Below are positions 6,923 through 62,005 of a stretch of 62,005 nucleotides of DNA, piece by piece. Source of the stretch: a virus (lineage: Duplodnaviria; Caudoviricetes); the IMG/VR virus record IMGVR_UViG_3300025000_000103, positions 1 through 62,005 of that record; one strand, 5' to 3'. The notes under the pieces are model-generated. The model saw only the letters and a program-made list of their open reading frames with translations. It did no database searches and was not told the origin of the DNA. Position 1 is the first letter of the stretch, and each line of letters starts with the position of its first letter. The translations under genes and the position numbers were made by a program.

Positions 6923-6931
6923 ATAAAGGTT

Positions 6932-6999: not shown

Positions 7000-7029
7000 T
7001 TTTTAAGATTGATATAAATAGGATAGATT

Positions 7030-7350: not shown

Positions 7351-7351
7351 C

Positions 7352-7588: not shown

Positions 7589-7740
7589 TCCGTGGCAAAA
7601 TGCTGGTTGCTGCTGCAACCCAAAAGGAATTACATGATTTTTTAACCTACGTTGCCACACTGGAAGGACTTCTTGAAGAAGCAGACAATGACGATTATTT
7701 TGGTACAGAAGGATGGAGGCATAGAATCGGATTACAATAA
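7555..7740 (+). CDS. Hypothetical protein
   Basis: AGGAG RBS; C-terminal DYFGTEGWRH. Confidence 0.7.
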   Translation: MELRTEKELDMIRGKMLVAAATQKELHDFLTYVATLEGLLEEADNDDYFGTEGWRHRIGLQ

Positions 7741-7745
7741 GCGTG

Positions 7746-7817
7746 GCCGGTTAGCTCCCGGATGAACTGCAAAGATTACGGGGGAGTTGCAGAGAGATTG
7801 ACAATAAAGCCCGTTCA
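7746..7817 (+). repeat. Intergenic repeat B, copy 2
   Basis: Near-identical to 6932-6999 with a 4-nt insertion. Confidence 0.92.
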
Positions 7818-7834
7818 ACTAAAAAGGAGATACT

Positions 7835-8110
7835 ATGAAGAAATACAGAACAGGCGGATATAGCAAGAACCTTATTCAAGAAGTGGAAATTGTGAGAGAA
7901 ACAGAAAAACAGGTCGTTATCCGATCCCACAATGGATCGGAGAGAAGAGAGGCGAAGCGAAGCGATTACCAAAACTATTTTGATGACTGGCAATCTGCTA
8001 AAGATTTTCTTTTGAATAATGCAGAGAAAAAAGTTGATGGTATTAAGATGCAGCTTGAACGCGCAAAAGGAGAACTTGGCAATATTAAAGGGCTTCGCCA
8101 AGAGTTATAA
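7835..8110 (+). CDS. Hypothetical protein
   Basis: AGGAG RBS. Confidence 0.7.
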   Translation: MKKYRTGGYSKNLIQEVEIVRETEKQVVIRSHNGSERREAKRSDYQNYFDDWQSAKDFLLNNAEKKVDGIKMQLERAKGELGNIKGLRQEL

Positions 8111-15939: not shown

Positions 15940-18900
15940 TCACCGTGTCGATTTATTATAACTACGGTTAAAATTATCATACACTTTATCCATATATTTA
16001 TCAACTTTATCATTTTTTCCAGACGACTTTTTGAGTTTGCGTAACTCTCTAAGTCTCTTTTCACTTTTGTCTGTAACAAATATAAGAAGTAAAGTGTTTT
16101 TATATTTATTTTTTATTTCTTCTCTCATTTCAGGTTTTTCTTTGAACATTTTCTTATCGAGCAATATCTCTTTTACTCTTTCGTGATATAGACTCTGATC
16201 TATTGCTTCACTTTTTGAACCGATAATCTTCCTTGCGAATGGTATTTCTTTAATTTCTACTTCTTGACCAGTTGCAATTTTATAAGGAACCCCGACGCTA
16301 TCAGCAACAAACCTGCCAAGAGAACCAGTAACTGTATCATACATGTTATCTATCCACTCAGGAGACCAATTGACAAAGCCTGGTTTAATCTCGTTGCCGC
16401 CTGTCAAATCATTAAGTGCTTTTGCTATATACTTGCTGGTTGGACGTGCGCTTCTCCAATACATTTGGTATTCAGGTTTTGGCACCTTATCAAATGGCGA
16501 GTTCTCAGGTTTAAGCGGAGTTCCTGACCATGATTTATTTTCAATAATCTGAACAAACGGATCGGCAATAGTAGGTGCTAATGTTTGCGCAAATGTAGCG
16601 GCCTGAATAGGGTTAAAGGCGTTTATTGCTGTAATGGCTATTCTGGCAGCCGATTCAGTCGGTTTGAATTTCTCCTCCGTGAATGAACGGCCTAATTCAG
16701 CGCCAATGTTCCAAAACAGGTTATACCCCCATGGCAACGGGATTTTTATATAACCACCGTTGCTTTTCATGATAACGATATTTCTTTCTTTGATATACTG
16801 CGGGACTTTGTCATAAAATGCCTGACCGTCATCATCATCACCGCCCATTGCCCGGCTGAAAACATCCATTGCCATACCTGCAAAAATAGTTGAGCCGACC
16901 ATTATTCTTACTTTCTTGCTGCGTTTAATAGCGCGGATTATTCTGGTTGAGCCCTGAACGCCAGCATTTGCAAACATGTACAGCGCGTTTATTGTTTGCC
17001 CTGCTGATCCTTTTGTTTCAAAGTTCGTTGTAAGTTCTTTAGCGGCAAGAGCAGCACGTTCACGGGTCATCAATCTTGATTCAACAGCGTTTTTGTAAAA
17101 TGATAGCCTTACAGCATTTTCAATCGAATTGTTCGCTTTGCTGACAAGTTCCCCTAATCCTTTGAGTTTCTGACGTGCCATGAAGTTTACATCAGTCCCG
17201 GATTTTATTTCTGCTGCAATATTTTTTGCTGTTTTTTCAACTGATGCATAATCAGACAACCAGGACACTTGCCCGCCATGCTTCTGAAAATCCTTAAACC
17301 ATTTTGACCATTCAGAAGTTGTGTCACCACCTATTGCTTTCCATATGCCAGGCATCGATTTTCTGACATCAATAATTATTTGTTTTTTTAATTTATCAGC
17401 ATCGGTATCAGAGATATTGTAAGCTGCTGTTTGAATATCTCTAGCAAAGTTAGAAATGGGAAACTCAGGAGACCACGAAGTATTTACCTGCGCCAATAAC
17501 CTTGTCACAATAGAAAGAGCGTTAACGATAGGCCCGTGCTGGTGCATATCGTTTTTTAATGCTTGTGCGATCCTTATTCCAGGGACGCTATCTTCTTGGA
17601 ACCGGATGACGTATCTCTCGCCGTTTATTCTGGCTTGAATTATATTGTCACCATCTTCTTGTGTGGTATACATCCTGATGTTTCCATGCGAGTCATACCC
17701 AGGAGATTTTTTACTTTTCTCCACTGCCCAGAAATCAGGATTCGGATAAGCCTTTATCAATGACACAAGCGCTCTCATAGTCTCAGCCTTTTTGTCACGG
17801 ATAATCGATTGTTCAGCGGCAGCTATTGAGTTTGCAATAATATTTTCAGCGCGTCTCGTTGAGCCCATCCGCACTTTGCTTCCCTTGCTTAAATCAGATA
17901 TTCCTCTGCCAACAGGTAAACGTTTTTCCGGGAACCCTTCTCTTTTGAGCGGGACATAATGCTTATATGCGCCACGCCATGCTTTCGCTTCTTCTGCCGA
18001 GATTATCCCAGCATTAAGCAGAGTGTTAACCCTGAACTCATTAATAGCGCTTATGCGTTCAGAAATGCGTTCTAAATCAGGAGTTTTGCCAGCATAAATC
18101 TCTGAGGCCTCTTTGTTTGTCATGCCTGATGGTTTTTCAGAAAAAGATTTCCATCTTGATTGAAGCCTCTCTTCTCCTTCTTTGCTTTCATCGAAACTGT
18201 TTTCAAGCAAAGAGACATATGCTTTCTTTCTATCAGGTGAATCGAAATCATACTCAAACTCAAGATCTTCTATTTTTTGTTTCAGCTTTCTTGCTTCGCG
18301 TCCCTCTTTAAGGTTAACCAGATCATTCAGGTATCTTTTCGCATTTATCTGTGAAAGTCGTTCATTTACCTTGTCAAGGTGGACATGTTTTGCATAAACG
18401 TAATTTTCAACATCTTCAAGTTTAAGCCCTGATTTCTTGATATCTTTAAGCAATGGATCAACATGCAATTGCTCAAAATCGTCAATAGCAGCCTTTGATT
18501 TGGCAATTTGCAATTTCGCTTTCAGAAGAGCGTCCATTTCTTCCGGCACTGGCCCTATTTTTTCTTGTACACGCTTTAATGGATCAAGTTTATCTTGCAG
18601 ATACCATTGAAGCGATTCCCATTTTGTTGACTTATCCGGCACTTCCCACAGATCGTTTGTTTGCTCTTCCATTTGTTGGTTAATATCAACTCTTGAAAAC
18701 AGCGGATAGCTTGATGGTGTGGTGGTTTCCTGGATTTGTTTCTGGCTGTAACGGATGTCATCAGTTTGGCCGAATTGGCCGGTATTTGAAATCGCTGATT
18801 TTATTTGTTTGGGTGAGAAAACCATATATTCTTTTGGGAACCCTTTATCTCCCAAAACAATGCCATCATTATGTTTATTTTTTATTTTTTCTATGAATGG

Positions 18901-21900
18901 GTCTACCTTTTCAGAAACCATTACCCCATTTTTATCAGACAGATTCATCCCGTCTTTCCACATATTAAAGCTGAAAGGTTTGTTCAATTTCAAAAAAACA
19001 GGTATTACACTACCATTATTTTCTGCATAAAATGAAGCGTATTCTGCGCTTGGTGCGAAAAAAATACCGTGTTTAGCTATTGGGTTTCCTGTAATCGGCC
19101 CTGTTCCAGCTACTTTAAGCGAGAATGATTTTATATTATTTGAAGGAGTCCCATGATAAACCACCAAAGGATCGCCGTTCTCATCGATTACTTTACTGGA
19201 GTTTTTAGGATCGTTCTCCCAATCACCAAACCACTCCTTAAACGCAGGTGTCCGCGTTTGCACCCACTGCCGCTCGTTCAATTTAGTCGGCTCGCCGTTC
19301 GGTGCTTTCATCCATTCCGCTGTGCCCTTGTACTTCTTTACCACTGCATCATATTGCCGCTTGGCTTCTTCAACGGTTATGCCGTACTCTTTGGCAATCT
19401 GGCTGTAAACAGGAGCCACCGCGCCAACTTGTAAGGATTCCTTAACAGTTCCAACCTTCAGCCCAGACAACGCAACTTCCCGCAGAAACGCAGGAGTGAG
19501 GTTCTTAGGCATGACCCCAAAGGTATTGAATAAGGTGTACTTGACTTTGGCAATTAGCTTCTCTACCCACTTCTTGATGGTGTTCGGCGCGGATTCATAC
19601 CATTGAACCGCATAAGCTCCTATCTCATCGATGTAGCTATTTGAATCCTTGTCAACCTGCGCTGCTTCACGGGCCTTGGTAAACCACTCGGCAATCGCAC
19701 TTTTTGCACCGGCCATTTTCTCAAGGCCGCCAAGTTCATCAAGAATGGGCTTGACTTCGCCTTTTTCTACGGCTCTGTGGAAGGATTCATGGTAGGCCGT
19801 TGGGAGTTCTTCCCCTTTGGCGATTGATTCCGCGACAAGGTACATTGTGTCTGTGTTTGGATAATAGGCACCGGCGATCTGTCTGTTTTGTTTTGAGTAT
19901 CTTGCCTTTATTGAAACATCTTCGTCACTAAATATTACGTAGTTGTATGCGCCTTCGCCTTTTGCGCGGCTTGTACCATCCAGGTATTTAATGCCACGGA
20001 TTCCTAGAGAGTGAAGAATATTGCTTGTTTCTTCAGGAGTGTATTTATTCGACAAAAATCTATAAAATTCACCTCCAGTCATATAAGACTTACTGTCCAA
20101 TACTTTTTTAAAAAAATCAGTCCTCGCTAACTCTGTTTCTCCATTTTCAAATATGATTTTGTTTCCTGAATTAACTCTTTTATAAATGTTGCTTTGCTCA
20201 TCTTTTATTTTTGCTTTAGTTCTATCAAGCAAAACGCTCTGCTCAGAAAGCGGCTTATCCCAAAGCAAAAATTCATCTTCTGCTGGAGCTAGTTCTACTT
20301 CGTAGAGTGCGCCTGATTTATCAGGGTATTCAAAAGAAATATCACCATTTTTTAAAAGCCTATATATTTCTTTTTCAACTTTCTTTTCCGAAAAATTCCA
20401 ATAATCAGTATCAAAACTATGGTCTCCAGTCTTAATACTTGAAATAGCGTCGCTAATTGATTCAAAATTGCTTACAAAAAACAAGGCTAAGTCCGTTAAT
20501 TCATTATCTGTGACAGACTGTCCTTCGTAATCATCAAAAAATAATTCTTCCCCTTTATATTTAAAAACAACATCTTGCGCCTGTAAATTTTCTTTATACC
20601 ACTCGGCAATTTCTTTTTTGCTGGCGAAATACAACCCATACCCGTAAGCCTGCGCCCCTTCTCCACTGCCTATATTTTCGGTGCTGAACTTATCGAACTT
20701 GTGCGGGCTACCATGCCATGCCGTCATATAAAGCGGCTTGCTACCACGAGGAAGCTCCTCAACGCTTTCCACAATCTTCAGCTTGCCAGCCTCAATCATC
20801 CGCCGTGCGTTGGCGTTCTTGGAGACTGCGGCTTTTACTGCGTCTACTGTTTGGCCGGTGGTGGTTGAGCGGGAGTAAAGAGCCGTTCCTTTGTCTGTCT
20901 CTTTTGTTTTTATGGTGGAAAATAAATTATCAAACGCTTCACTTACAGGGGCTATTTCATCAACCAGCAAATATGGATAACGTTTTTGATCCATTGCCCA
21001 TGCTTCAATAGGAACAACGTTGGCTAAAAAATCATTATGGTATCCATCTAATTGCATTTTTGTGATAACATAATTTTCAAATGAACGCGCAGCTCTTTCT
21101 ATTACCCTTCCCCAATAGTTATCAGATTTTCCTTTACCGATAAGATCGGCACGCTTTTTCATTGGAGATTCATCAAGCGCTTTAACCAAATCAGAGAATG
21201 CTTCCTCAACTTCTGGCCTTATGCCCGTGACAATATCCCAATCGTTAATATTTATTCTGCCATTTTTTTGTATTTCTTTAGTGCGTTGCGCTGAAAGAGT
21301 GTGCCCAGTTACTTTGTGCCTATACCGTGTCTCTGGTTGATATGTGACATAGGATGTTTCTCGTTTAACGCCAGTTGGCCCCCTTTCGCGTTGAAAATAA
21401 TTATCAAGAGCATGAAACCATTCATGGGCTAAACTGCCAGCTCCAGACGGTTTTGTTAAATTTATCACTAACGTCCCTGGCTCGTAATGTGCTGCTGCTG
21501 CCCCATGGCCGCGAGATCCAAGCCCAAGCCCAAGAGAACCGTTTAGTGAAATAGCTTTTGTAGGTATGTTAATGATGTTTGCAAGATCGTATAATGCATC
21601 ATACGCCAAATTCAACATTCCTTGCCTATCTTTGCTGCCCTTCCCTTGCTTTAGCCATAGGCCAAATTCCACACCGCGAAATCCGAATGTATCTTGAAAC
21701 ATCTCCGCCGTCACATCTTTCCCCATGCGGTGGTCGTTCCCCTTCCTTGGCCTGTTTTCTTTCCCGCGCACATCAGATTTTTTAATGTTCTGCGTAGCTT
21801 TTATATTTTCCCATTCAGCCACAAGATCATTGTAATTATCCCTGCGGTAATTATATGCTTCTTCCTTGGTGTCGAACTCTTTTAATTTTCTTTTAAGAGG

Positions 21901-24900
21901 ATCGCCCTCTTTGTTAAAAAAGAACTTACCAGTAGATATATTTTTTCTGAGTTCAAATTTTATATTTTTTGTTTCTCGTTCTCCTTGCAGTCTCTCCTTT
22001 GCTTTTGCGATTGCGTCATCAAGGCTAATTCCTCTGGCATACGACCCATCTACTTTAACCAACGCTGAAGGTGCACTTTTCTTTTGATTATTTTCGTCAT
22101 AAATGAATGCGTTTGGATAATCAAAAACTTCGCCGATTCTGCCCCATTCCTTGCGGTCTATTTCTGTAAGAACTTTAATTTTATTAACTATATTTTTAAG
22201 TGACTGCTTGCTCCCCATCTTGTCTATTAGTGCATCATTGCCTATGCGGTCATAGTGACGCATAATACCGCGCAATGATTTGACAGTATCTACCCATCTT
22301 TGTACTTTATATTTTTGGCGCGGTTTATTGGGTATTTCCTCACGAATAGCAAAAGCGACAGCAGCTTTATTTACATCTTCTATTTCTTCTATTTCTTCTT
22401 TAGGCCATATTTTGCTTAAAGGAAGAGAGGAAATATCATCATCGGATAATTCTCTGTTAAAAGACTTCGCAAGATCTTTACGAGCGCCACCAAGTTTTTC
22501 TCCGAAATCATCTATCTTTTCTTTATCATTAGTTAGTGGCTCTTGCTTTCCCTTAACCTCTGCGCTTTCTTTCTTAACTCTTTGAGTTTTTTCTTCAACC
22601 GCCTGCGCTGTCTTTGCTTCTCTAGCGGTATCCACTCTATCTTTATTGCGTTGAATAGTATCATCTTTGCCCTCAGATGTTTTAGAAGCTTGCCGCACGG
22701 CAGGGGCGATCAACTCCCCGCCGCTTTCCTGGGTGGCCTTGCTTGCAGAGGGCTGGGCGGCTTTGTTTTGTTGTTTTATTTTTTGCAAATTTATTGGGTG
22801 TATTCCCCTATTTTTTGCAATAGCATTATAAATTTTTTCAGTCTTTCTTAATGCTTCTTTGTTCCATGCTACCGTTTTTAGATCATCGTTAAATGCTCTG
22901 CCTTCAAGTATAGGGTTTGATCCTGAACCTCCCCATCTAAATTCGGCAAATTCTAATGGACTTCCAGAAGAATCCTTTTTAGCAAAATGAGAATACAAAT
23001 CTGCCAAATGATACGGAATTTGTTTTCCAATGTCCTTAAGTGTTTCAGAAGTTAAAGATACGCTTAAATCAGTGTCCTTATGAATACCTATTTTTTTAAG
23101 GGCGCTAATTGCTTCAGTTTTATCAATACCTGTATCTTTTACGATTGTGTCAAAAAAATAAGTTAAATCTTTTTTGTCAATTTTATCTCTAACCGCATAT
23201 AGCTCTTCTAATTTATTGATATCGCTATCTGTTACTGGTGTTTTGACCTTGAGATTATCAGGAAGATTTTTATTTGTTTGCGCGTTAATCACTTCTTCGA
23301 AAGTAAATTTTTTCAATAATCTGTCCATTTCATCGTCAATATCTTTTTGAGCAGATTCTGATGTTTTTACTTTTTCTTTCTGCAAAGGCACAGCCTTGGC
23401 CCTCTCCAGTTCATCCATGACGGCCTGCTCTGTTACCTGACCGTCTGCATCAACAAGTTTCTGCGCGTTGTCAAAGGCTTCCTGTTTCAGCTTGGCGGCC
23501 ACGTCTGGCTTACCTTTGTTCTCGAACGCTTTGGCAACGTCAAGCTTCTGGCCTACAGAATCAGTGACCACCTGTTTTATTTTTTGCTCTTCGGTAAGCT
23601 CTCGGCCTGATACTGTGGATATCGACCATGGCTTGCCTACTGCGGCAGCTAGTTTCTTGGATGTGGACGGCGGCGCTGGCTCGTATCCGGCTATCTCATT
23701 ATCAATCTTAGCATTGGTTGCTTTTGAATTGATTGCCTGCGGTGATTCATACGCCCATCCAAGATTGGGCTGATTACGTTTGCTTGTGTATTCTTGGGCG
23801 GCCTGTTGCTGCTGGCTCCATTCCGGTTCCATGCGCCGTGCTGCCGTGCGTTCTGCATCTTGCTGCTGTACATCTTGCTGAGTGCCGATAATATCAGCCA
23901 TGAGGTCAGGAGGCGGTTGCCTGCGTGCCTCTTGCTCGAACTGTGCTGCTTCTTCGTCTGAGATTACAGGAGAAGGCGTTACGGCTTCTTGAGGCTGGTC
24001 ACGGTAAATTTGTACAGGTTCGACATTATGGGATACAATGAGGTCTTGCCCTATCTCGCCAAGTTTCTTGTAAACCTTTGGTTCTGTTCCCCTCATTAAT
24101 CCAAGAGCCGAAGCACCACCACCCATGCCTGCTTGCATTGCCACGACTTGAGGGGCAACTTCTTTGTATGAAGTTCCCCAATCTTCCAAGCTTGTCATTG
24201 ACCGCGGCGCTTCATTACGCAAACCCATTTCAACCTCTGCGGGCTGCTGGATTTGTGTTGTGGTTGTTTCGCCAGCCAGTTCAACGCCAAGCGACTTAAT
24301 ACCTTCAAATGCCTTGCTTGCGATGGTCTTGAGTAATCCTTGCCCGGCAGGTGTTTTCCCGATCATCTTTGATAAGAAGCCAATCTCAAAAGCGTTCCCT
24401 ATCGCTTCAGGCAAAACCTCACCGGCAACATGACGTTTTATGCTTGAATCAAAATCAGCAAGAAGAGCAGCTGCTTCCTCTTCGGTAAGCCTTGCCCCTT
24501 TCTGTTGTTCAAATGCGTCAATTAATTGACGTTCTATGGTGTTTTTTGCGACTGGGGTTAATGCAAGTGAGCTACCGGCAATTGCACCGGCAGCAGCTCC
24601 ACCGGGCACAGGAGTTGCCAAGCCTGCGGCGCGTCCGGCTAAACCGCCTATCAATCCTACCCCTGAAAATGGGGCGCTCTTTGTGGCCTCTATCACATCT
24701 TGTTGGGTCATCCCTTCAGGGAGAATAAAAGGGACAGGCGGAAACGCCGTTCTACGGTCTTCCCCCGTTTGATCGGCAGTTTCGGCGTAGTGTTGTTTTT
24801 CCCGCTCAATTAACCAGTCAGCGAGATTTTCTTTTGAGCGCGGGTTTTCGTCAAAGGTTTCTTCATATGCTCTGGCAGCCATGGCAGGGAGCCCATATAC

Positions 24901-25137
24901 TGCCGCATTCTTAATCCCTTTACCGATAGTTTTTACAGTGGTAGGTATGTTTCTGGTTGCTTCTTTGGCCTGCTCAGTCCACGACTTTGCTGCCGGAACC
25001 ATGGCGTCAAGCTGTTGATCAAGCAAAGAATTAACATCAGGATCTGATAAGTCAAACCCGTTCTCTTTGGCAAAAACGTTTTTATATGCCTGCCTTACAT
25101 CAGGATCAGAAAAATCAAACTGTGATTGAATTGCCAT
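15940..25137 (-). CDS. Giant polyvalent (likely injected) protein: LPD-type, zincin-like and two ART-like domains
   Basis: 3065 aa; IDDFGEKLGGARKD, FRGVEFG..AAHYEP..SLAHEWFHALD, AWHGSPHKFDKF..GLYFA, AYHESFH, VYHGT..GIFFA, C-terminal KIPLPWGY. Confidence 0.85.
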   Translation of the reverse strand: MAIQSQFDFSDPDVRQAYKNVFAKENGFDLSDPDVNSLLDQQLDAMVPAAKSWTEQAKEATRNIPTTVKTIGKGIKNAAVYGLPAMAARAYEETFDENPRSKENLADWLIEREKQHYAETADQTGEDRRTAFPPVPFILPEGMTQQDVIEATKSAPFSGVGLIGGLAGRAAGLATPVPGGAAAGAIAGSSLALTPVAKNTIERQLIDAFEQQKGARLTEEEAAALLADFDSSIKRHVAGEVLPEAIGNAFEIGFLSKMIGKTPAGQGLLKTIASKAFEGIKSLGVELAGETTTTQIQQPAEVEMGLRNEAPRSMTSLEDWGTSYKEVAPQVVAMQAGMGGGASALGLMRGTEPKVYKKLGEIGQDLIVSHNVEPVQIYRDQPQEAVTPSPVISDEEAAQFEQEARRQPPPDLMADIIGTQQDVQQQDAERTAARRMEPEWSQQQQAAQEYTSKRNQPNLGWAYESPQAINSKATNAKIDNEIAGYEPAPPSTSKKLAAAVGKPWSISTVSGRELTEEQKIKQVVTDSVGQKLDVAKAFENKGKPDVAAKLKQEAFDNAQKLVDADGQVTEQAVMDELERAKAVPLQKEKVKTSESAQKDIDDEMDRLLKKFTFEEVINAQTNKNLPDNLKVKTPVTDSDINKLEELYAVRDKIDKKDLTYFFDTIVKDTGIDKTEAISALKKIGIHKDTDLSVSLTSETLKDIGKQIPYHLADLYSHFAKKDSSGSPLEFAEFRWGGSGSNPILEGRAFNDDLKTVAWNKEALRKTEKIYNAIAKNRGIHPINLQKIKQQNKAAQPSASKATQESGGELIAPAVRQASKTSEGKDDTIQRNKDRVDTAREAKTAQAVEEKTQRVKKESAEVKGKQEPLTNDKEKIDDFGEKLGGARKDLAKSFNRELSDDDISSLPLSKIWPKEEIEEIEDVNKAAVAFAIREEIPNKPRQKYKVQRWVDTVKSLRGIMRHYDRIGNDALIDKMGSKQSLKNIVNKIKVLTEIDRKEWGRIGEVFDYPNAFIYDENNQKKSAPSALVKVDGSYARGISLDDAIAKAKERLQGERETKNIKFELRKNISTGKFFFNKEGDPLKRKLKEFDTKEEAYNYRRDNYNDLVAEWENIKATQNIKKSDVRGKENRPRKGNDHRMGKDVTAEMFQDTFGFRGVEFGLWLKQGKGSKDRQGMLNLAYDALYDLANIINIPTKAISLNGSLGLGLGSRGHGAAAAHYEPGTLVINLTKPSGAGSLAHEWFHALDNYFQRERGPTGVKRETSYVTYQPETRYRHKVTGHTLSAQRTKEIQKNGRININDWDIVTGIRPEVEEAFSDLVKALDESPMKKRADLIGKGKSDNYWGRVIERAARSFENYVITKMQLDGYHNDFLANVVPIEAWAMDQKRYPYLLVDEIAPVSEAFDNLFSTIKTKETDKGTALYSRSTTTGQTVDAVKAAVSKNANARRMIEAGKLKIVESVEELPRGSKPLYMTAWHGSPHKFDKFSTENIGSGEGAQAYGYGLYFASKKEIAEWYKENLQAQDVVFKYKGEELFFDDYEGQSVTDNELTDLALFFVSNFESISDAISSIKTGDHSFDTDYWNFSEKKVEKEIYRLLKNGDISFEYPDKSGALYEVELAPAEDEFLLWDKPLSEQSVLLDRTKAKIKDEQSNIYKRVNSGNKIIFENGETELARTDFFKKVLDSKSYMTGGEFYRFLSNKYTPEETSNILHSLGIRGIKYLDGTSRAKGEGAYNYVIFSDEDVSIKARYSKQNRQIAGAYYPNTDTMYLVAESIAKGEELPTAYHESFHRAVEKGEVKPILDELGGLEKMAGAKSAIAEWFTKAREAAQVDKDSNSYIDEIGAYAVQWYESAPNTIKKWVEKLIAKVKYTLFNTFGVMPKNLTPAFLREVALSGLKVGTVKESLQVGAVAPVYSQIAKEYGITVEEAKRQYDAVVKKYKGTAEWMKAPNGEPTKLNERQWVQTRTPAFKEWFGDWENDPKNSSKVIDENGDPLVVYHGTPSNNIKSFSLKVAGTGPITGNPIAKHGIFFAPSAEYASFYAENNGSVIPVFLKLNKPFSFNMWKDGMNLSDKNGVMVSEKVDPFIEKIKNKHNDGIVLGDKGFPKEYMVFSPKQIKSAISNTGQFGQTDDIRYSQKQIQETTTPSSYPLFSRVDINQQMEEQTNDLWEVPDKSTKWESLQWYLQDKLDPLKRVQEKIGPVPEEMDALLKAKLQIAKSKAAIDDFEQLHVDPLLKDIKKSGLKLEDVENYVYAKHVHLDKVNERLSQINAKRYLNDLVNLKEGREARKLKQKIEDLEFEYDFDSPDRKKAYVSLLENSFDESKEGEERLQSRWKSFSEKPSGMTNKEASEIYAGKTPDLERISERISAINEFRVNTLLNAGIISAEEAKAWRGAYKHYVPLKREGFPEKRLPVGRGISDLSKGSKVRMGSTRRAENIIANSIAAAEQSIIRDKKAETMRALVSLIKAYPNPDFWAVEKSKKSPGYDSHGNIRMYTTQEDGDNIIQARINGERYVIRFQEDSVPGIRIAQALKNDMHQHGPIVNALSIVTRLLAQVNTSWSPEFPISNFARDIQTAAYNISDTDADKLKKQIIIDVRKSMPGIWKAIGGDTTSEWSKWFKDFQKHGGQVSWLSDYASVEKTAKNIAAEIKSGTDVNFMARQKLKGLGELVSKANNSIENAVRLSFYKNAVESRLMTRERAALAAKELTTNFETKGSAGQTINALYMFANAGVQGSTRIIRAIKRSKKVRIMVGSTIFAGMAMDVFSRAMGGDDDDGQAFYDKVPQYIKERNIVIMKSNGGYIKIPLPWGYNLFWNIGAELGRSFTEEKFKPTESAARIAITAINAFNPIQAATFAQTLAPTIADPFVQIIENKSWSGTPLKPENSPFDKVPKPEYQMYWRSARPTSKYIAKALNDLTGGNEIKPGFVNWSPEWIDNMYDTVTGSLGRFVADSVGVPYKIATGQEVEIKEIPFARKIIGSKSEAIDQSLYHERVKEILLDKKMFKEKPEMREEIKNKYKNTLLLIFVTDKSEKRLRELRKLKKSSGKNDKVDKYMDKVYDNFNRSYNKSTR

Positions 25138-37143: not shown

Positions 37144-38139
37144 CTATACAAGTCTACTGAGCATTTCCTCTATTTTGTCAGGGTTAAGGCTCAGAAATTT
37201 ATCCATTGTTGCTGTAGTTGACATATTTGCCAACGCATCTGCTTCGTCGTGATGTGCTGCTGCACTGCCAGGCACGTCTGATAGAGAAAATGGCGGCGTT
37301 TCTTTGGTCTTTGAGATTACATCTTCAGCCTTTTTCTTGATGTCTTCAGCGCTTTCCTTTTTGACATCTTCAACAACAGGCTTCTTACCAAGAGCGCCTT
37401 GCATCGTTTCGATTGCTGCCGTAACCATTTCTTTCGCTTTTGTGAGAATATCACTATGCGCGAGACTTTGGTTATCCCTTGCAACAATCTTAACCGCACC
37501 GTCCAAATAATCGTAAAGTGCCGGTGTTTCTTTAAAGACTTGGTTTTCAGGGGCCTTAAAGAAATCGTCCTGCGCCTTTATCCATGAGTTCCTGTCTGCT
37601 TCGATAGCCTGTTGTTCGCTTTGCGCGACTTTTTGCTTGACCGGCTCTATCTCTTTGACAATCTCTTCCTTGAAAGACTTGATACCAACAGCAACTCCCT
37701 GTTTTATCATGCTTTCAAGGTACGGCTTGATATCCTGCATAAATTCCGGGAATTCTCCGGCGTACTCTTCAAGAACTTTTTCCTGTTCTTTCGTGTCCCC
37801 GGTTCCGGCGTCAGCAGCCTTCGCCGCTTTCAGGTCAGCAATAAGCTGATCCTTACTTTTAAGTGATTCCTCAAGCTCCTTGGCCCTTAAGTCAGCAGCT
37901 CTTTCCCGCTCTCTTGCCCTCTCAAGCTCAGAATACGGAATAGTGTTTTTACTGTCTTTTGCCAGGATAACAGGCTCTTCTTTTTCTTCAGGCTCCGGTT
38001 CCTTGCCGCTGAGGTCTGGCGAATCCTCAGTTTTCTTATCGCCATCAGGATAGTCGATCCCATGCAGGAATACTCTGGCCTGTTCTTCGTCACTCAGGCT
38101 CAACATTTCTTCGGTGCTCATTTCTTCTATCGTTTTCAT
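37144..38139 (-). CDS. Capsid scaffolding protein
   Basis: Acidic coiled coil before the MCP; TIPYSEL, PFSLSDVPG. Confidence 0.75.
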   Translation of the reverse strand: MKTIEEMSTEEMLSLSDEEQARVFLHGIDYPDGDKKTEDSPDLSGKEPEPEEKEEPVILAKDSKNTIPYSELERARERERAADLRAKELEESLKSKDQLIADLKAAKAADAGTGDTKEQEKVLEEYAGEFPEFMQDIKPYLESMIKQGVAVGIKSFKEEIVKEIEPVKQKVAQSEQQAIEADRNSWIKAQDDFFKAPENQVFKETPALYDYLDGAVKIVARDNQSLAHSDILTKAKEMVTAAIETMQGALGKKPVVEDVKKESAEDIKKKAEDVISKTKETPPFSLSDVPGSAAAHHDEADALANMSTTATMDKFLSLNPDKIEEMLSRLV

Positions 38140-38183: not shown

Positions 38184-38639
38184 TTAAGCCGGATTACCCG
38201 GTTTAATTCTTCGTGCGGGGACACCCGCCCATATTTCGTTTTCTGGAACAGATTTTGTTACAACCGCGCCTGCCCCGATTATTGCCTTATTACCAATTGT
38301 CACACCGGGCATGATGATTGCACCTGTGCCTATCATTGCATCCTTGCCAACATAAATTGGTGCCCAATCGCCACGTTCTCTTGGCGGGAATTCATGCGTG
38401 AAATGTACGTTTGGCCCTATTCTTGCCCTATGGTCTATTGTCACTCCCTGGGGAATAAACGAATATGCGCCTATAGAGACTTGATGGCCTATTGATGCTC
38501 CTGATATTTCAACATATGACCCTATGTTGCAATCGTGCCCGATATGAGTTTCATTGTAAATGTTGCAAAAATGGTGAATCACAGTACCTGACATGATCAC
38601 ACAATCATCGCTTATCAATGAAGTCTTACAGGCTTTCAT
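38184..38639 (-). CDS. Hexapeptide-repeat (left-handed beta-helix) acetyltransferase
   Basis: IGHDCNIGSY, IGAYSFIPQGVTI, IGAGAVVTKSVP..WAGVPAR. Confidence 0.9.
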   Translation of the reverse strand: MKACKTSLISDDCVIMSGTVIHHFCNIYNETHIGHDCNIGSYVEISGASIGHQVSIGAYSFIPQGVTIDHRARIGPNVHFTHEFPPRERGDWAPIYVGKDAMIGTGAIIMPGVTIGNKAIIGAGAVVTKSVPENEIWAGVPARRIKPGNPA

Positions 38640-39588
38640 ACAATGCCACCATAGCCTTGACCGTTTCAGAGATATCGTTTGCAGGCAAGCATTTCCTCGG
38701 CTCGACTTCGCCTTTCAGGATTGCAACCAGTTCCTTTGCCATTTCTCTCTGATCGCCTTCGGTTATCCAATAATCAGCATACTCATTCCCGCGGTAGGAT
38801 ATCAGTTTAGCCCCACAAGCCTTCGCTTCCATCGCCAGCCGGTCAAAGTCACCGTAGCGCACCAAGCCAATATAAAAATCAGTCGAGCAGAAAGCGTTTA
38901 TCAAATCTTCCTGAGCAAGCGGTGTACCGCTCAGATACGATTTGTATGCCGTCCCGTTACTGTAGACCAGCGGCATAAACCAACGATGCTGATCTCTCGG
39001 CAGATAATGGGCATGCAGCACAGCGTCCGGGATTTCCTTAACCACCCACGGCCACAACATAAACAGATCCAAAGGCCATTTGATATAATGGCAGTTCTCA
39101 GCCGTGAAAACAGAAGGATTACCGGCATACTTCCCGCGTGTTGGCATTGGCTTAAATGTCGATGTATCAACACCCATCGGCACAAGTTCAACCCGTGTGT
39201 TTTTGTTTGCCATGCTCTTGAGTATCGCCTGATGCCTTGGCCACCATGTGACGGTTGCGTCAGCAATCCTCAAATAATTCATGAGCATCATCCACGCATC
39301 GCCAGCACCGTACCCATGGTTTAACCCGGCTTCCACTGCCGACTGAAAACAATGTTCCGGCGTTCCATGCGCGACATACACAACCTTCTTCGCTTTCCCT
39401 GTTAACAAAATTTTGTCTGGGATGTGAGAATGTAAAACATGGACATCAGCGTCCACGTCTTGCAGTTGTTCCGTCTGTGTACTTACCAGGAAAGAATCGT
39501 GCCCGGCCTTGCACTCACCAGCTGAGATATCCCGCGCCATATGGTGCAGGCCGGACCCATTTGTTAATGTCCAATGACAAATTTTCAT
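38626..39588 (-). CDS. GT-B (GT4-like) glycosyltransferase
   Basis: SG..H, VHVLHSH, VAHGT, VPMGVD...F.P, AMEAKACG. Confidence 0.85.
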   Translation of the reverse strand: MKICHWTLTNGSGLHHMARDISAGECKAGHDSFLVSTQTEQLQDVDADVHVLHSHIPDKILLTGKAKKVVYVAHGTPEHCFQSAVEAGLNHGYGAGDAWMMLMNYLRIADATVTWWPRHQAILKSMANKNTRVELVPMGVDTSTFKPMPTRGKYAGNPSVFTAENCHYIKWPLDLFMLWPWVVKEIPDAVLHAHYLPRDQHRWFMPLVYSNGTAYKSYLSGTPLAQEDLINAFCSTDFYIGLVRYGDFDRLAMEAKACGAKLISYRGNEYADYWITEGDQREMAKELVAILKGEVEPRKCLPANDISETVKAMVALYESL

Positions 39589-40343
39589 TAAGCGTGGTAA
39601 CTCGCTACAGTTGAGTCTGTGGTTGAAATAATAACGCTCAAGCTTGCCGCCTTACTGTCTCCTGTTGCCAAGTTCGAAGATGCAATTACACTGTTCGAAG
39701 TCGCCCGGCTTGTCGAAGCTGACAGGTTTGTCGAAGCAATGGTAGACAAAGACGTTGCCTTTGAATCGCCAGTCGAAAGATTGGTCGAAGCGATTACACT
39801 ATTTGACGTTGCCCGGCTGGTTGATGCGGACAAGTTCGTCGAGGCAATAACGCTATTGCTGGTTGCCCTGCTGGTATTGCCGGAAATCAACACGCTGTTA
39901 CTCGCAGCTTTTGAGTCCGAAGTGACAAGGTTGGAACTGATAACAACACTGTTGCTGGTCGCTTTGGAGTCGGAGGCAGATGCTTCATAAGGTGATACGC
40001 TAAACCCGCGACCGTCATAAACCAGGGAATACCCAGAGGCAAGAACGGCTTTGATAATCGGAATTTCAGTGCCGTCAACATCACGCTGTAATGTCACGGT
40101 GCTGCTGGTATCGTCGGCGTTGTAGATAACCAAACTCTTCACCCGGCGTGATACAAAGTCAGCTTCAGGCGCGGCAAGGATTGTTTTATCTGTTGCGCCG
40201 GTTATCGACCCTGCGGTGCTGCCGGGAATCTTTTTGCCGCTGTTGTAATACTCATCCTCATACGAGATATGGTATGTCGGCTCCGTTGCATTCGCTGACC
40301 CTGCCGCGAAAACTTCCAAACTGTTTAAGGCTGTTAATTCCAT
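39588..40343 (-). CDS. Ser/Thr-rich repeat protein
   Basis: AGGAG RBS before MELTAL; C-terminal ~18-aa repeats (TSRATSNSVIASTNLSAS / DSKATS..). Confidence 0.8.
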   Translation of the reverse strand: MELTALNSLEVFAAGSANATEPTYHISYEDEYYNSGKKIPGSTAGSITGATDKTILAAPEADFVSRRVKSLVIYNADDTSSTVTLQRDVDGTEIPIIKAVLASGYSLVYDGRGFSVSPYEASASDSKATSNSVVISSNLVTSDSKAASNSVLISGNTSRATSNSVIASTNLSASTSRATSNSVIASTNLSTGDSKATSLSTIASTNLSASTSRATSNSVIASSNLATGDSKAASLSVIISTTDSTVASYHA

Positions 40344-40362
40344 TTCGTTTTCTCCTGTCTTT

Positions 40363-40845
40363 TTATTGTATTGCCTCAATATACATGAGGAAAGATGAGT
40401 TATTTACTGCGTTATTAGTTACTGTTACTGTCCATTGATACGGTGCATGCGGGTGGAGATATGCTACATTCCCTGCCTCGCCCTCGCCCATTATATTAAA
40501 AGTGCTTGCCGTGTTGTCGATTACGTTCAACCCGCTGCCGGATGCGGAGATGATTGTAAGCCCACGGCTATCAACAATTTGCAGGTCGCTGTTGTCTGTC
40601 GGGCCTGTTGCTCCCGGCACGATGTCAATCCAACAGAACTTGTTATCAAGCCGCGCCATAACACCAGTTGGGATAGTGGCAACCGCTGTGCCGGGGGTAG
40701 TGTCAAACGTGCATGTCACTACCTGCAACGTGTTACCTGTCCCAGATCTCTCCGGGGTTATTTGCCCGGAATCAACACACGTCATTGCCCCGATAGCTTG
40801 GCTTGCATAGAGGGTGAAAAGAGCTGCTAAAAAAATACGTTTCAT
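40363..40845 (-). CDS. Secreted beta-sandwich hypothetical protein
   Basis: Signal peptide MKRIFLAALFTLYASQAIG; coupled to the portal stop. Confidence 0.7.
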   Translation of the reverse strand: MKRIFLAALFTLYASQAIGAMTCVDSGQITPERSGTGNTLQVVTCTFDTTPGTAVATIPTGVMARLDNKFCWIDIVPGATGPTDNSDLQIVDSRGLTIISASGSGLNVIDNTASTFNIMGEGEAGNVAYLHPHAPYQWTVTVTNNAVNNSSFLMYIEAIQ

Positions 40846-42950
40846 TGGTTTATTTCTCCCTGCATTTCTTGGCCCGGCATTTCCTGCTCTGGCTGGTATG
40901 CTTCCGGTTGTGGTGCCGGAGGTGTCTGGATATTTTGAATTTGTGTTTCATCGACAATTCCTTTGGCAACATCTACAACTGCGTCACCAATATCGCCTAT
41001 TGCCGGGTTTTGCTGGAGGTACCCGGCTGCTTCCATCGCTGACAGCAGAGCTTCAATCCCTTTCTTTATCTGGTCGACATCTGACTGTTTCTCTTTGATA
41101 TCAAGCTCACGGTCTTTCTGAGCTGTCATGATTTCGAGCTTGACTTGTTTCTTGGCGTCCTCAACCATCTGCTTGACTTGTTCCGGGGTTATCTGTTGAT
41201 CAGCATCTTTAATAGCGGCAAGGAACTCTTCTCGGTTAGGAATATCCATCAGTGTCAGCAGGAACGGGAACCCTACAACTTGATAATGAGGAGGCATTGT
41301 TTCAAGCACAGCGCCAAGTGTCTGAAGCTGCTGTGCCCTGAATGTCGGGGTGCTCGGGACGTCTGAGAGCTCTACCCTCAACAACACCCGCTGAATGTCA
41401 TTGTCAAGATACTGAATACCATTTTCTTCAACCGGCACATTTATTTGTACTGGTCTTTCCGGCTTGGAAACAGAAGCCGGGATAATAATCTCTTGTTGCT
41501 CGCTGCCCATGTCCTCAATAATTAATTCAAGCAACAAATTGCCAACCGCTGTTCTCCCTTGCTTAAAATTCGAGTTAATTGCAGCCAACCCTTGGGATGA
41601 CTGCTCAACCAATGTATCAAGCGCTACCCCGGACTTTGCCTCACCACCTTGTCCCATGTAGGCGTCATGGATATTCGAGACACGCTTGATTGATTCCCGG
41701 CAGTCAACAAGACGCTGGTATTGCTGCTGATTAAGTTCAAAGTCGCGGTCAACCTTGAATACCCCACCATCGCGCATTTTCTGCGCATCAAGAACAATAT
41801 CAGCGTCGGGTCTGCCGACCTCATATTGCAAATCTGCATCAGATCCTGCGTATGCACCCTCTGTCCTGATAGTCCTTGTTGCGGCCAGCATCCACTGCAT
41901 ACGGGATATGCGAACGTTGATTTCGTCCTGCAGATACATCATGCCACGGATAAGCCCGTATGGTGCGCCGGTGCGGTCTTCTCTTTTTCCCCAAAACGGC
42001 ACATATGGAAATTTGTTGTGTTTGTAAGGAGTCGGCCCGTCCCAAAGAAGATGAGGCCCAAGCCACCATGAGAGCCTCATCCTGCTGACCAGCGCCATGA
42101 CTGGTTTGAGTTTCGCTGTTGCGATAGCCATCATGTGGGCCGGTTTTTTTGGGTCGTACTCGACCACTCGTCCATCAGGTGTTTTGATAACGAGAGCTTT
42201 TTCCCACACGCGATACCAGCACTCAAACAGGCACACCCTGTTGTTGGCTACGTCTCGCCACTCCATTTCTTCGATTGACCAGCCGCGTTCGTATTCCTGG
42301 CTCATCGCAAGAGTAGTTGAAGTCCCGCCATCAAGAGAGAGTGACGTCAAGTCTATTGCCTGCCATCCTGTCCCTGCGCCACGGATTAAATCTTCTTTGC
42401 CAGAGAACATCAAAGCAGCTTGGTCTACGTCCATCCATTTACGTCTGACAAGATAGCGAGAAGATTCGAGCATTGGCTCTTTGTCAAGCCAATCCCACCA
42501 TATTTCGTTGCGATGGACTCCCCGGCAACGGTATTTGTATTCAAAGGGATTGGGATTGCGGGAGACTTCGACCCAACCGAGGCCGACTTTTATTTGTGAT
42601 GCGTATGCGTCAGTACATGCGAGGTCGGCTTTGCTCTTGCGCTCTGCCTCATTAAGCCTGACGTTGATCGCTTCTGCAAGTTCGTCAGATCCGGTTTCTG
42701 CCTTGACACGCCAGTCAAGGCGCATCTTGGCTTCCATTCCAAGGACTGAATCTATTGTTGAGCCGATGATTGGTTCTATTGCTGGCGGGATTCCGAGTGC
42801 GGCTTGTGCCTGAAGGACTTCGGAGTCAAGCTGATTACCGTCATAGTAATCACTTTCCTTATCGGCTCTGGATCTCCAGGCAGGCTGCCAGAGGATTTCT
42901 TCGAGAAATTTGGTGTATTTGGATAGGTCGAGTTTATATGTTTTTTTCAT
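40842..42950 (-). CDS. Portal protein
   Basis: WR..ADKESDYYDGNQL, GLGWVEV, FPYVPFWG, SGVAL; ~700 aa P22/933W-type. Confidence 0.9.
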   Translation of the reverse strand: MKKTYKLDLSKYTKFLEEILWQPAWRSRADKESDYYDGNQLDSEVLQAQAALGIPPAIEPIIGSTIDSVLGMEAKMRLDWRVKAETGSDELAEAINVRLNEAERKSKADLACTDAYASQIKVGLGWVEVSRNPNPFEYKYRCRGVHRNEIWWDWLDKEPMLESSRYLVRRKWMDVDQAALMFSGKEDLIRGAGTGWQAIDLTSLSLDGGTSTTLAMSQEYERGWSIEEMEWRDVANNRVCLFECWYRVWEKALVIKTPDGRVVEYDPKKPAHMMAIATAKLKPVMALVSRMRLSWWLGPHLLWDGPTPYKHNKFPYVPFWGKREDRTGAPYGLIRGMMYLQDEINVRISRMQWMLAATRTIRTEGAYAGSDADLQYEVGRPDADIVLDAQKMRDGGVFKVDRDFELNQQQYQRLVDCRESIKRVSNIHDAYMGQGGEAKSGVALDTLVEQSSQGLAAINSNFKQGRTAVGNLLLELIIEDMGSEQQEIIIPASVSKPERPVQINVPVEENGIQYLDNDIQRVLLRVELSDVPSTPTFRAQQLQTLGAVLETMPPHYQVVGFPFLLTLMDIPNREEFLAAIKDADQQITPEQVKQMVEDAKKQVKLEIMTAQKDRELDIKEKQSDVDQIKKGIEALLSAMEAAGYLQQNPAIGDIGDAVVDVAKGIVDETQIQNIQTPPAPQPEAYQPEQEMPGQEMQGEINQ

Positions 42951-42955
42951 CGCAC

Positions 42956-43004
42956 AATAAAAAAGCCCGCATGGACACACCGAAGTGCATCACATGCGGG
43001 CTTT
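42956..43004 (-). terminator. Terminator-like hairpin immediately upstream of the portal gene
   Basis: AAAGCCCGCATG...CATGCGGGCTTT followed by a T-run on the minus strand. Confidence 0.7.
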
Positions 43005-45969: not shown

Positions 45970-46055
45970 TGGAGGAGGGCAGACGAATCGAACGCCCATG
46001 TTTTACCATGCCCAGGGGTTCAAGCCCTGTTGCCAACCATTTAGCGGTGCCCTCC
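45970..46055 (-). tRNA. tRNA-Ser(UGA), non-canonical 8/4 (allo-tRNA-like) fold
   Basis: GGAGGGCA/TGCCCTCC acceptor, CAGGG-CTTGAAC-CCCTG anticodon arm, long V arm, GGCG-TTCGATT-CGTC, encoded TCCA. Confidence 0.85.
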
Positions 46056-46143
46056 TGGCGGTAGGTATATGATTCGAACATATGCTAGTTTTAACCAGTC
46101 CTCTGATTAGCAATCAGGAGCATTACCACTCTGCCAACCTACC
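46056..46143 (-). tRNA. tRNA-Ser(GCU)
   Basis: GGTAGGT/ACCTACC acceptor, TTGCTAA loop, long V arm, ATATG-TTCGAAT-CATAT, GCCA. Confidence 0.93.
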
Positions 46144-61273: not shown

Positions 61274-61515
61274 GCGAAAAAGACCGAGATACGGAATGCC
61301 TAACATGCTGGGAAGAGCTTGCAGAGTGCAAATGTGGCAACGCAACAGGCTATAGCGATAAAGCTATTTACTGCCCGTATTGCGGCCATGCTAATAATAC
61401 AGGGGACTTTGACATTGACGATGATGACGTATTCACGTGCTTTAGATGCGAAAAAGATTTCATCGTGAGTGTTCATGTATTTTATAAGTGGGAAACCAGG
61501 AGGATGGAGGAATAA
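61270..61515 (+). CDS. Zn-ribbon hypothetical protein
   Basis: CPYCG, CFRC. Confidence 0.65.
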   Translation: MSEKDRDTECLTCWEELAECKCGNATGYSDKAIYCPYCGHANNTGDFDIDDDDVFTCFRCEKDFIVSVHVFYKWETRRMEE

Positions 61516-61516
61516 T

Positions 61517-62005
61517 ATGAGCGATAAAGTTGAAGGGTACAAAGGATTTAATAAACATCTTTCTTGCCGTGGCTATCAATTTGAGGAAGGAAAAACATTT
61601 AAGCACGATGGAGATATATCAATTTGTAATAGTGGTTTTCATTTTTGCGAAAATCCTATTGATATTTTTTCATATTATTCCCCAGATGATAGCGTATTCC
61701 ATATTGTTAGCGGACATGGGAAAACGTTAAAGCACGACGAAGACAGTAAGATCGTGTGTTCAGAAATAACTATCGGCGCATCGATTAGCCTGCATGATTT
61801 TATAGCAGATGGAATTAAATTTTTTTTCAATAGAAAATATAGTAGCAACAACACTAGACATTCCACCGGGGACAGTTCGGCATCTTCAGCCACCGGGTAC
61901 AGTTCGGCATCTTCAGCCACCGGGGACAGTTCGGCATCTTCAGCCACCGGGTACAGGTCGGCATCTTCAGCCACCGGGGACAGGTCGGCATCTTCAGCCA
62001 CCGGG
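61517..62005 (+). CDS. DUF7666-like protein, N-terminal part (continues at position 1)
   Basis: GGAGG RBS; MSDKVEGYKGFNKHLSCRGYQFEEGK..C..GFHFCENP...YY; open to the window end. Confidence 0.85.
   Translation, partial: MSDKVEGYKGFNKHLSCRGYQFEEGKTFKHDGDISICNSGFHFCENPIDIFSYYSPDDSVFHIVSGHGKTLKHDEDSKIVCSEITIGASISLHDFIADGIKFFFNRKYSSNNTRHSTGDSSASSATGYSSASSATGDSSASSATGYRSASSATGDRSASSATG
61862..62005 (+). repeat. 27-bp coding tandem repeat (~5 units) joining the window start
   Basis: Same unit as 2-136; the last 16 nt equal the first 16 nt. Confidence 0.95.

Follow-up and report, generated by a model that had tools for sequence, protein, structure and literature searches.

Fibre, glycosyltransferase and acetyltransferase genes travel together through phage head modules: a candidate virion glycosylation cassette

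What are genes for a glycosyltransferase (GT) and an acetyltransferase doing among the head genes of a phage? This question is raised by the IMG/VR virus record IMGVR_UViG_3300025000_000103, which was analysed over its whole length of 62,005 bases (completeness estimate 96%) and is called the window in the following. Between its portal gene and its scaffold-like gene, the window carries four tightly packed genes on the minus strand, which encode a 160-amino-acid (aa) protein, a fibre with Ser/Thr-rich repeats, the GT and a left-handed beta-helix (LbH) acetyltransferase. An initial annotation, made from the window alone, had taken all four genes for a candidate glycosylation cassette. The comparison with other viral contigs upholds the cassette for three of the genes, the fibre-GT-LbH trio, which is conserved, whereas the gene for the 160-aa signal-like protein lies outside the unit. 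On balance, we consider it probable that the GT and the LbH enzyme act on the fibre repeats in the cytoplasm, ahead of assembly, by O-glycosylation and acetylation.

The association of the three genes was followed in both directions. A scan of viral contigs with the GT gave 73 loci (L-numbers denote contig loci throughout), and tblastn detected an LbH gene in 66 of them. When the count was restricted to the 68 loci with at least 500 nucleotides (nt) downstream of the GT, the LbH gene was located within 700 nt of the GT in 62 cases, further off in two and absent in four. When the open reading frames (ORFs) were clustered, the window fibre grouped with proteins encoded directly upstream of the GT (54 family members in all, from 53 loci). 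Moreover, the ORF ending no more than 300 nt upstream of the GT was Ser/Thr-rich in 50 of 69 GT loci, i.e. the fraction of Ser and Thr in its last 100 aa exceeded 0.25, the 95th percentile of 755 background genes. In eight of the other 19 loci, the repeats form part of a longer fibre that has a different C-terminal domain, for instance a protein consisting of Mtd_N, the repeats and Gly_rich_2 that has the PHROGs annotation tail fibre. A stricter cut (Ser and Thr at least 0.40 in a 60-aa window) retained 36 of 68 loci, and a hidden Markov model (HMM) of the window-type repeat recovered the neighbouring fibre in no more than 35 of 68, owing to divergence between the repeat types. The reverse scan, for which the repeat pattern alone was used, uncovered 20 loci, and in 19 of these the GT follows immediately downstream; the remaining locus encodes a second repeat protein, and its contig carries the GT as well. 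Five of the 20 contigs had been missed by the GT scan, the GT being cut off at the contig end. Co-conservation of the trio, named beforehand as one of the points on which the proposal should stand or fall, was thus found in both directions and in unrelated head modules. The window shows the same arrangement, with the Ser/Thr-rich fibre gene directly upstream and the LbH gene directly downstream of the GT gene on the same strand.

The trio is not tied to one type of head module. None of the 73 GT loci gave a tblastn match to the portal, the scaffold or the major capsid protein (MCP) of the window. The order is portal, scaffold, fibre, GT, LbH and MCP in T7-like modules and portal, protease, fibre, GT, LbH and MCP in lambda-like modules, in which the fibre gene takes the position of a decoration gene, and at least three further head-gene arrangements hold the trio. 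Altogether, it was met in at least six head-gene contexts that are unrelated to one another. What the fibres have in common are the Ser/Thr-rich repeats of 9/18 residues and, often, the C-terminal tail, and their N-terminal domains differ by phage. The domain of the L006 fibre matches phrog_122 'head decoration' (5.6e-12, profile positions 17-106 of 109), those of L020 and L052 match phrog_1731 'virion structural protein' (about 1e-18, with 9.1e-19 for L020; positions 2-130 of 135), that of L051 matches phrog_673, that of L023 is assigned to a tail fibre, and the fibres of some lineages match PF22758 weakly. In a quick maximum-likelihood tree of 62 GTs, the labels of the head contexts required 19 changes, compared with a minimum of seven and a mean of 36 after shuffling; it follows that the module has passed from one type of head module to another on several occasions, though not without restriction. 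The GT nearest to that of the window is 58% identical and stands in a T7-like context.

The relatives of the window itself reveal where the fibre may have come from. None of 41 MCP relatives (55-77% identity) carries the GT or the LbH gene. The N-terminal domain of the fibre (query residues 1-109) is 36-37% identical to proteins on L103, L118 and L084, which carry other C-terminal parts and have neither enzyme gene nearby. On L103 and L118, a homolog of the 160-aa protein is accompanied by this domain (36%, residues 1-109) with a C-terminal part that is not Ser-rich, and on L084 the domain has yet another C-terminal part. Judged by these alignments, the fibre is chimeric: a Ser-repeat tail that arrived with the two enzymes has been grafted onto an anchor specific to the lineage, and the repeats follow the enzymes, not the anchor. 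The same comparison removes the 160-aa protein from the unit. Its homologs are confined to L103 and L118 (48% identity), which both lack the GT and the LbH gene, and a jackhmmer search of the 73 GT loci retrieved none. It had been described as a signal-peptide protein, and by eye its N-terminus does look like a Sec signal, with basic residues (K2/R3), a hydrophobic segment some 14 residues long and the site AIG-A; the pattern is also present in the 48%-identical homolog on L103. The protein belongs to no Pfam, PHROG or NCBIfam family, and in a protein atlas it is found only among viral clusters of hypothetical proteins.

The tight coupling of the four genes was rightly noted in the initial annotation. 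There is an overlap of 4 nt between the portal stop and the 160-aa gene, one of 1 nt (TAATG) between the fibre stop and the GT start and one of 14 nt between the GT and LbH genes; the scaffold gene is preceded by a 44-nt spacer with a ribosome-binding site. The G+C content of the four genes (0.447-0.497) is inside the range of the flanking head genes. However, the view that they interrupt a usual adjacency of portal and scaffold has to be modified. Four genes do lie between the two, but in 24 relatives with both genes in view the gap ranges from 55 to 3605 nt and measures 204 nt or less in only five. Among the MCP relatives (L080-L119), the portal-scaffold junction is a hypervariable cargo slot for unrelated genes. 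It holds ORFs of 690-773 aa resembling fibres or tailspikes on L081, L082 and L115, and a Cys- and Arg-rich protein of 285 aa on L098.

The fibre consists of three parts (Table 1). Its most likely start is the ATG at 40343, which lies behind a GGAG site, and the listed TTG at 40379 is less likely; the homolog P0121 also has 251 aa, in keeping with this choice. The N-terminal domain matches nothing in Pfam, PHROG or Foldseek; it is lineage-specific and is presumed to anchor the fibre on the virion. A Foldseek search of the whole fibre model against the PDB gave nothing at an E-value of 0.001 or better, and a PDB sequence search gave 0 matches. The seven repeat units start at residues 125-229 and contain 30% Ser and 14% Thr; they are the only match of the repeat HMM in the window. 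The mean identity between the units is 61% for amino acids and 49% for nucleotides, positions with the same residue use a different codon in 73% of the cases, and TRF detects only a weak 18-bp array of 2.4 copies. Thus, the earlier statement that the repeats are conserved as protein and diverged in codons is correct. The repeat region was modelled as a beta-strand solenoid at a pLDDT of about 58, and the model aligns to adhesin beta-helices with Z scores of 10-11.7; repeats commonly yield mid-range values. The tail pattern, i.e. [ST]x[LIVMA]xS and then, 0-2 residues on, an aromatic residue or His among the final four, was written after the data had been seen; of the unique tails upstream of the GT, 24 of 53 conform to it, compared with two of 629 background C-termini, which is a description of a post hoc motif. 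Four close homologs of the fibre (70-93% identity) have the same architecture and differ in length, repeat number and tail. A prediction of the complex of the GT with the fibre repeats and tail gave an ipSAE of 0.00 in both runs and was made with no controls, so that it is uninformative either way.

The GT belongs to a distinct GT4-like family. Its only Pfam match, Glyco_transf_4 (PF13439), is below threshold (22.4 bits, cut-off 28.5), NCBIfam and PHROG give no match, and the best PDB profile match has an E-value of 0.07. However, the GT4-like assignment is borne out by the fold. The AlphaFold model (alignment of 20 homologs; pLDDT 86.4, pTM 0.84) confirms two Rossmann-like domains, i.e. a GT-B fold, and Foldseek retrieved PimB', MshA, BshA, SenB and PglA (E 1.7e-12 to 1e-9, TM 0.65-0.73), which are retaining GT-B enzymes of the GT4 type. 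The viral fold neighbours are GT1/RfaG-type enzymes. Grouping with DNA-modifying enzymes had been named as an outcome that would count against the proposal, and it was not observed, the DNA alpha-GT of S-TIM5 appearing only at rank 31 of the viral fold search (TM 0.51). In an HMM alignment to PDB 8xsg, G246 stands at the first Glu of the E-x7-E motif and E254 at the second. The unusual glycine, which the initial annotation had already pointed out, is invariant in 20 of 20 homologs, and E254 is kept in at least 90% of them. The residues N10, S12, G13, H53, H55, K170, E254 and E277-R281 are invariant or nearly so in the same 20 homologs, and the N-terminal Gly loop (N-x-S-G) is conserved. There are 739 GT homologs at E 0.001 or better (90% clusters), almost all of about 320 aa and unnamed; among 1.84 billion representatives, 234 match at E 0.001 or better and 30 at 1e-30 or better.

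Distant relatives of the GT reach PF13692. Some of these (P0176, P0188, P0205, P0212, P0216 and P0223; E 1e-17 to 1e-10) carry additional, fused SAM-methyltransferase, GT11-like or GT1 domains, or their sequence is broken by inteins with LAGLIDADG endonucleases. Three long ORFs were considered as GT-LbH fusions and rejected by blastp: those of 468 and 434 aa only lengthen the LbH frame upstream, through the GT gene, and that of 626 aa is a GT with extensions. No GT homologs of 561-2000 aa were found, which is weak evidence against fusions.

The LbH enzyme was correctly described as a hexapeptide-repeat acetyltransferase, with matches to PF00132 (82.3 bits, above the cut-off of 27) and PF14602 (54.3 bits); the E-value for Hexapep is given in Table 1. 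The best NCBIfam model, NeuD/PglB/VioB (TIGR03570; 1.3e-27, 96.7 bits), remains below its cut-off of 160.8 because only the LbH part is present (profile positions 110-202). The closest solved relatives are 7s43 (7.6e-20, residues 15-132), 4mzu (8e-19), 3mqg (9e-15) and 3fs8 (2e-13). These relatives (7s43, FdtD, WlbB and QdtC) are N-acetyltransferases of nucleotide-linked 3-amino sugars and align over nearly the full length, whereas the O-acetyltransferases MAT and GAT match at about 1e-13 and only in the C-terminal half (residues 66-147). Since the nearest relatives N-acetylate nucleotide-linked sugars, the LbH enzyme may act on the donor sugar before transfer. The initial annotation had cast it as an acetyl-tailoring enzyme; it may N-acetylate the donor and not tailor the attached glycan. 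A carbohydrate O-acetylesterase (sialate-type) of the SASA family is encoded elsewhere in the window (4643-5398, plus strand; PF03629, 1.6e-28). The phage thus has genes for both an acetyltransferase and a sugar acetylesterase, and it handles acetylated glycans in some way.

Taken together, the two-way linkage, the translational coupling and the repeats that follow the enzymes argue for an enzyme-substrate relation. In the mechanism that we favour, the translationally coupled trio would be expressed with the head genes. The GT would be a soluble enzyme that, during late expression, transfers a sugar from a host nucleotide-sugar to the Ser/Thr hydroxyls of the repeats in the cytoplasm of the infected cell. 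The repeats, which the model suggests probably fold as a beta-solenoid, could present these hydroxyls as ladders. The LbH enzyme would either N-acetylate an amino-sugar donor before transfer, like its nearest solved relatives, or acetylate the attached sugar; we infer both the nature of the sugar and this step. The N-terminal domain would then dock the fibre on the virion as a head decoration, as part of a tail-fibre module or, in the window, by the lineage-specific beta-sandwich, and the outcome would be a glycan-bearing surface fibre. For this phage, the site on the virion is suggested by analogy with the other lineages. The initial annotation had proposed a glycan coat of the capsid. The anchor in other phages is a head-decoration protein, which fits a coat, but 'capsid' is too narrow because the repeats sit in a tail-fibre-like protein in some phages. 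We also regard as possible, albeit with some doubt, a more general scheme, namely a self-sufficient, portable O-glycosylation system of virions that is widespread in uncultivated phages. In this scheme, a Ser/Thr 'glyco-tail' with its own transferase, of a hitherto unnamed GT-B family, and its own acetyltransferase could be grafted onto any surface protein, be it a head-decoration protein, a tail fibre or a lineage-specific anchor; the C-terminal tail would serve as a docking signal for the enzymes, and unrelated phages could acquire the whole by one recombination.

Two single loci depart from the common arrangement. One viral contig (L138, 2516-2977; L010) encodes two Ser-repeat proteins, one before the GT and the other about 12 kb away, so the enzymes may serve more than one substrate. 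In L019, a GT2-methyltransferase fusion (6769-7980), not a fibre, is encoded directly upstream of the GT, a sign that the glycan may be more elaborate in some versions of the cassette.

Several observations weigh against glycosylation of the fibre. The LbH gene is missing in the above-mentioned four of 68 testable loci, and in about nine of 69 the GT is not directly preceded by a Ser-rich gene. In the GT, the E-x7-E motif is incomplete in all aligned family members, with Gly at the first position, and E164/N165 aligns by eye with what we take to be the phosphate-binding Arg of GT4 enzymes; given these two features, the use of the donor may be unusual. GtfA (4pqg), a protein O-GlcNAc transferase, appears only at rank 36 of the fold search (TMq 0.54), and the enzymes with the closest solved folds have lipids, small molecules or lipid-linked sugars as substrates. 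Furthermore, no enzyme making 3-amino sugars was detected among the window ORFs scanned, which are a subset of all ORFs, and the low confidence of the repeat model leaves the beta-solenoid shape and the likeness to TibA as leads only. The substrates of PimB', MshA, BshA, SenB and PglA would be in line with enzymes that act on the MCP, on another virion protein or on a glycan of the host envelope (receptor masking or seroconversion), the fibre being merely co-inherited in a surface-display module. The sugar acetylesterase of the window could be read in the same way, as could the glycans of mycobacteriophages, which the accessible text of PMC11256854 reports on major capsid proteins. We nevertheless consider such another target unlikely, since the GT gene came next in 19 of the 20 loci obtained with the repeats alone and since the repeats accompany the enzymes even in phages with unrelated capsid genes and a tail fibre as the carrier. 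Moreover, the profile scans with Pfam and NCBIfam matched only soluble GT and hexapeptide families and no membrane-protein family. Known seroconversion modules consist of membrane enzymes and lie near integrases, which also counts against this alternative.

The lost first Glu of the E-x7-E motif and the isolation of the family from mainstream GT4 enzymes (234 of 1.84 billion representatives; Pfam match below threshold) could also mean that no sugar is transferred at all. The GT-B protein would then be a non-catalytic or moonlighting chaperone of the repeat fibre, comparable to GtfB, the GT-B-like chaperone that is the partner of GtfA, and the LbH protein would be a second assembly or structural partner. 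This is improbable in our view, because the family retains, with little or no variation, the residues expected of an active nucleotide-sugar site, because distant relatives of the GT are fused to domains for sugar tailoring and because an LbH protein of the acetyl-CoA type has no obvious role in folding. Even further from what we expect is a hypermodification of the phage DNA, in which the GT would glycosylate a hydroxymethyl-pyrimidine, the LbH enzyme would acetylate the sugar and the location among the head genes would be incidental. The window does encode a thymidylate-synthase-like protein (2777-3517, plus strand; PF00303, 4.1e-8, C-terminal half only), possibly a pyrimidine hydroxymethylase, and phage DNA glycosyltransferases share the GT-B fold, one of them being the enzyme at rank 31. 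However, that match is weak, a gene of the thymidylate synthase family is present in none of five other GT-bearing virus records (four of them at least 94% complete), and the GT gene adjoins a Ser-rich structural gene and is never placed among replication genes. Modification of DNA is accordingly the explanation to which we give hardly any weight, and glycosylation of the fibre repeats remains the one that we favour.

Table 1 Features of the late-gene region of the window, beginning with the candidate cassette
Feature	Position	Strand	Description
Putative virion fibre gene, 251 aa	39588..40343	-	N-terminal anchor, Ser/Thr repeats and short C-terminal tail
Fibre N-terminal domain, residues 1-118	39990..40343	-	Predicted beta-sandwich, pLDDT 70-80
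Seven Ser/Thr-rich repeats of about 18 aa, residues 125-246	39606..39971	-	Proposed acceptor region
C-terminal tail S-T-V-A-S-Y-H-A	39591..39614	-	Recurrent fibre ending [ST]x[LIVMA]xS..[HYWF]..
GT-B glycosyltransferase, 320 aa	38626..39588	-	Distinct GT4-like family
Left-handed beta-helix (hexapeptide) acetyltransferase, 151 aa	38184..38639	-	Hexapep 1.1e-23
160-aa protein with signal-peptide-like N-terminus	40363..40845	-	Neighbour outside the conserved trio
Portal	40842..42980	-	PF16510, 1.4e-97; phrog_156; upstream flank of the cargo slot
Scaffold-like gene	37144..38139	-	phrog_479, 1.9e-18; downstream flank of the cargo slot
MCP	37134-35845	-	PF13252, 9.3e-143
Virion protein	35799-35314	-	phrog_8260
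Tail and internal-virion genes	beyond the virion protein	-	Including a 3065-aa protein
100-aa gene	between large terminase and portal	-	
Large terminase	45117-43573	-	
Small terminase	45574-45101	-	

The late genes of the window, including the portal gene, the four-gene stretch, the scaffold-like gene and the MCP gene, are all encoded on the minus strand, and the position of the scaffold-like gene directly before the MCP gene is kept in relatives. The giant virion-associated protein of 3065 aa (15940-25137, minus strand) matches phrog_616 (1.6e-179) and contains a DarB-like antirestriction region (residues 1758-1892). Two adjoining tRNA-Ser genes (anticodons UGA and GCU; 45970-46143, minus strand) are located just upstream of the terminase genes. 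A link between these tRNAs and the Ser-rich fibre was considered and dropped: all six Ser codons are used about evenly, with no clear match to the two tRNAs, and AGY codons make up 16 of 40 Ser codons in the fibre compared with 150 of 474 in other genes. The ends of the record encode another Ser-rich repeat protein, of a type unlike that of the fibre: one ORF (61469-62005) runs off the 3' end and one (2-331) enters at the 5' end, both on the plus strand. The two ORFs contain the same SSASSATG-like tandem repeat of 8 aa and therefore look like one gene, probably split by an assembly break inside the repeat of a circularly permuted genome; the HMM of the fibre repeat does not match this protein.

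The cassette is known here from uncultivated phages, and its GT family is named by no PHROG, NCBIfam or at-threshold Pfam model. A GT homolog was present in 0 of 50,697 GenBank phage records (tblastn of two GTs, E up to 1), and megablast gave no match of 10.6 kb of the head region to GenBank phages. The GT scan of 185,579 species genomes yielded only five contigs of metagenome-assembled genomes from mixed phyla, which permit no host assignment. No description of the cassette was found in the literature searched, and an earlier mention by Freeman et al. 2023 or in supplements is possible. As far as the accessible text of PMC11256854, PMC13313380 and PMC12582341 goes, virion glycosylation by phage enzymes is reported only for actinobacteriophages. 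If the proposal is true, glycan-bearing virion fibres would be common among uncultivated phages of several unrelated morphogenetic types, and a three-gene unit that carries its own substrate would provide a compact, transplantable means of glycosylating the phage surface. It could also help to explain the surface hairs or fibres on environmental phages, and it would name a GT family with 739 homologs that is annotated by no library. Since the same capsid lineage exists with and without the cassette, the phages provide a clean natural experiment.

By analogy, the kind of system is already known, namely phage or bacterial protein glycosylation with a dedicated substrate. For the actinobacteriophages Che8 and Rita, GTs encoded by the phage have been proposed or shown to glycosylate virion proteins, and virion glycosylation changes antibody recognition (Freeman et al. 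2023, via the accessible text of PMC11256854, PMC13313380 and PMC12582341). The likeness lies in the phage-encoded GTs and in the glycan coat of the virion, which is proposed for the cassette. In the accessible text of PMC11256854, the glycans of these phages are on major capsid proteins and the GT genes are near the 3' end of the genome. In contrast, the presumed Ser/Thr-repeat substrate of the cassette is encoded directly before the GT, which is followed by the LbH gene in the head-gene cluster, and the unit moves between unrelated phages. The decoration or cement proteins (phrog_122, phrog_1731 and PF22758) provide a second link to known virion components: the fibre N-terminal domains of other lineages cover the profiles end to end (phrog_122 for L006 and phrog_1731 for L020), and in other lineages the fibre gene stands at the decoration-gene position between protease and MCP genes. 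Unlike these proteins (profiles of 109-135 positions), the fibres add a Ser/Thr-repeat extension of 100 to 250 aa, and the N-terminal domain of the window matches none of the three families.

Among bacterial systems, TibC/TibA and Aah/AIDA-I are similar in that the gene for the transferase adjoins that for a protein with repeats of about 18-19 residues. The Ser residues of repeat proteins of the TibA/AIDA-I type are hyper-glycosylated in the cytoplasm before export. The fibre repeat model, at its pLDDT of about 58, aligns to TibC-glycosylated TibA (4q1q) with a Z score of 10.0 (rmsd 3.2, 132 residues) and to Ag43 (7kob) with a Z score of 10.1 (about 131 residues). The cassette differs by its GT4-like GT-B enzyme of 320 aa, the LbH partner and the lack of an autotransporter. 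The serine-rich repeat systems of Gram-positive bacteria (GtfA/GtfB) resemble the proposed cassette in the Ser-rich repeat substrate and the cytoplasmic transferase of the GT4 type, and their glycoproteins also undergo later O-acetylation of the sugars. However, the cassette has no GtfB and no accessory Sec system, its acetyltransferase is an LbH protein and the fibre, with 15.9 bits against a cut-off of 650, falls outside the serine-rich family NF033849 of NCBIfam. The same two enzyme classes also occur together in bacterial pairs of GT4 and LbH enzymes (PglA/PglD; QdtC, WlbB and FdtD), PglA matching the fold of the GT with a TM of 0.70-0.72 and the LbH enzyme matching 7s43, FdtD, WlbB and QdtC at 1e-20 to 1e-13. 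The pathways of the PglA/PglD and QdtC types make lipid- or nucleotide-linked glycans and involve many further enzymes. No sugar-nucleotide pathway enzymes were detected in the scanned subset of the window ORFs. Unlike these pathways, the cassette contains only two enzymes, and these travel together with a protein substrate.

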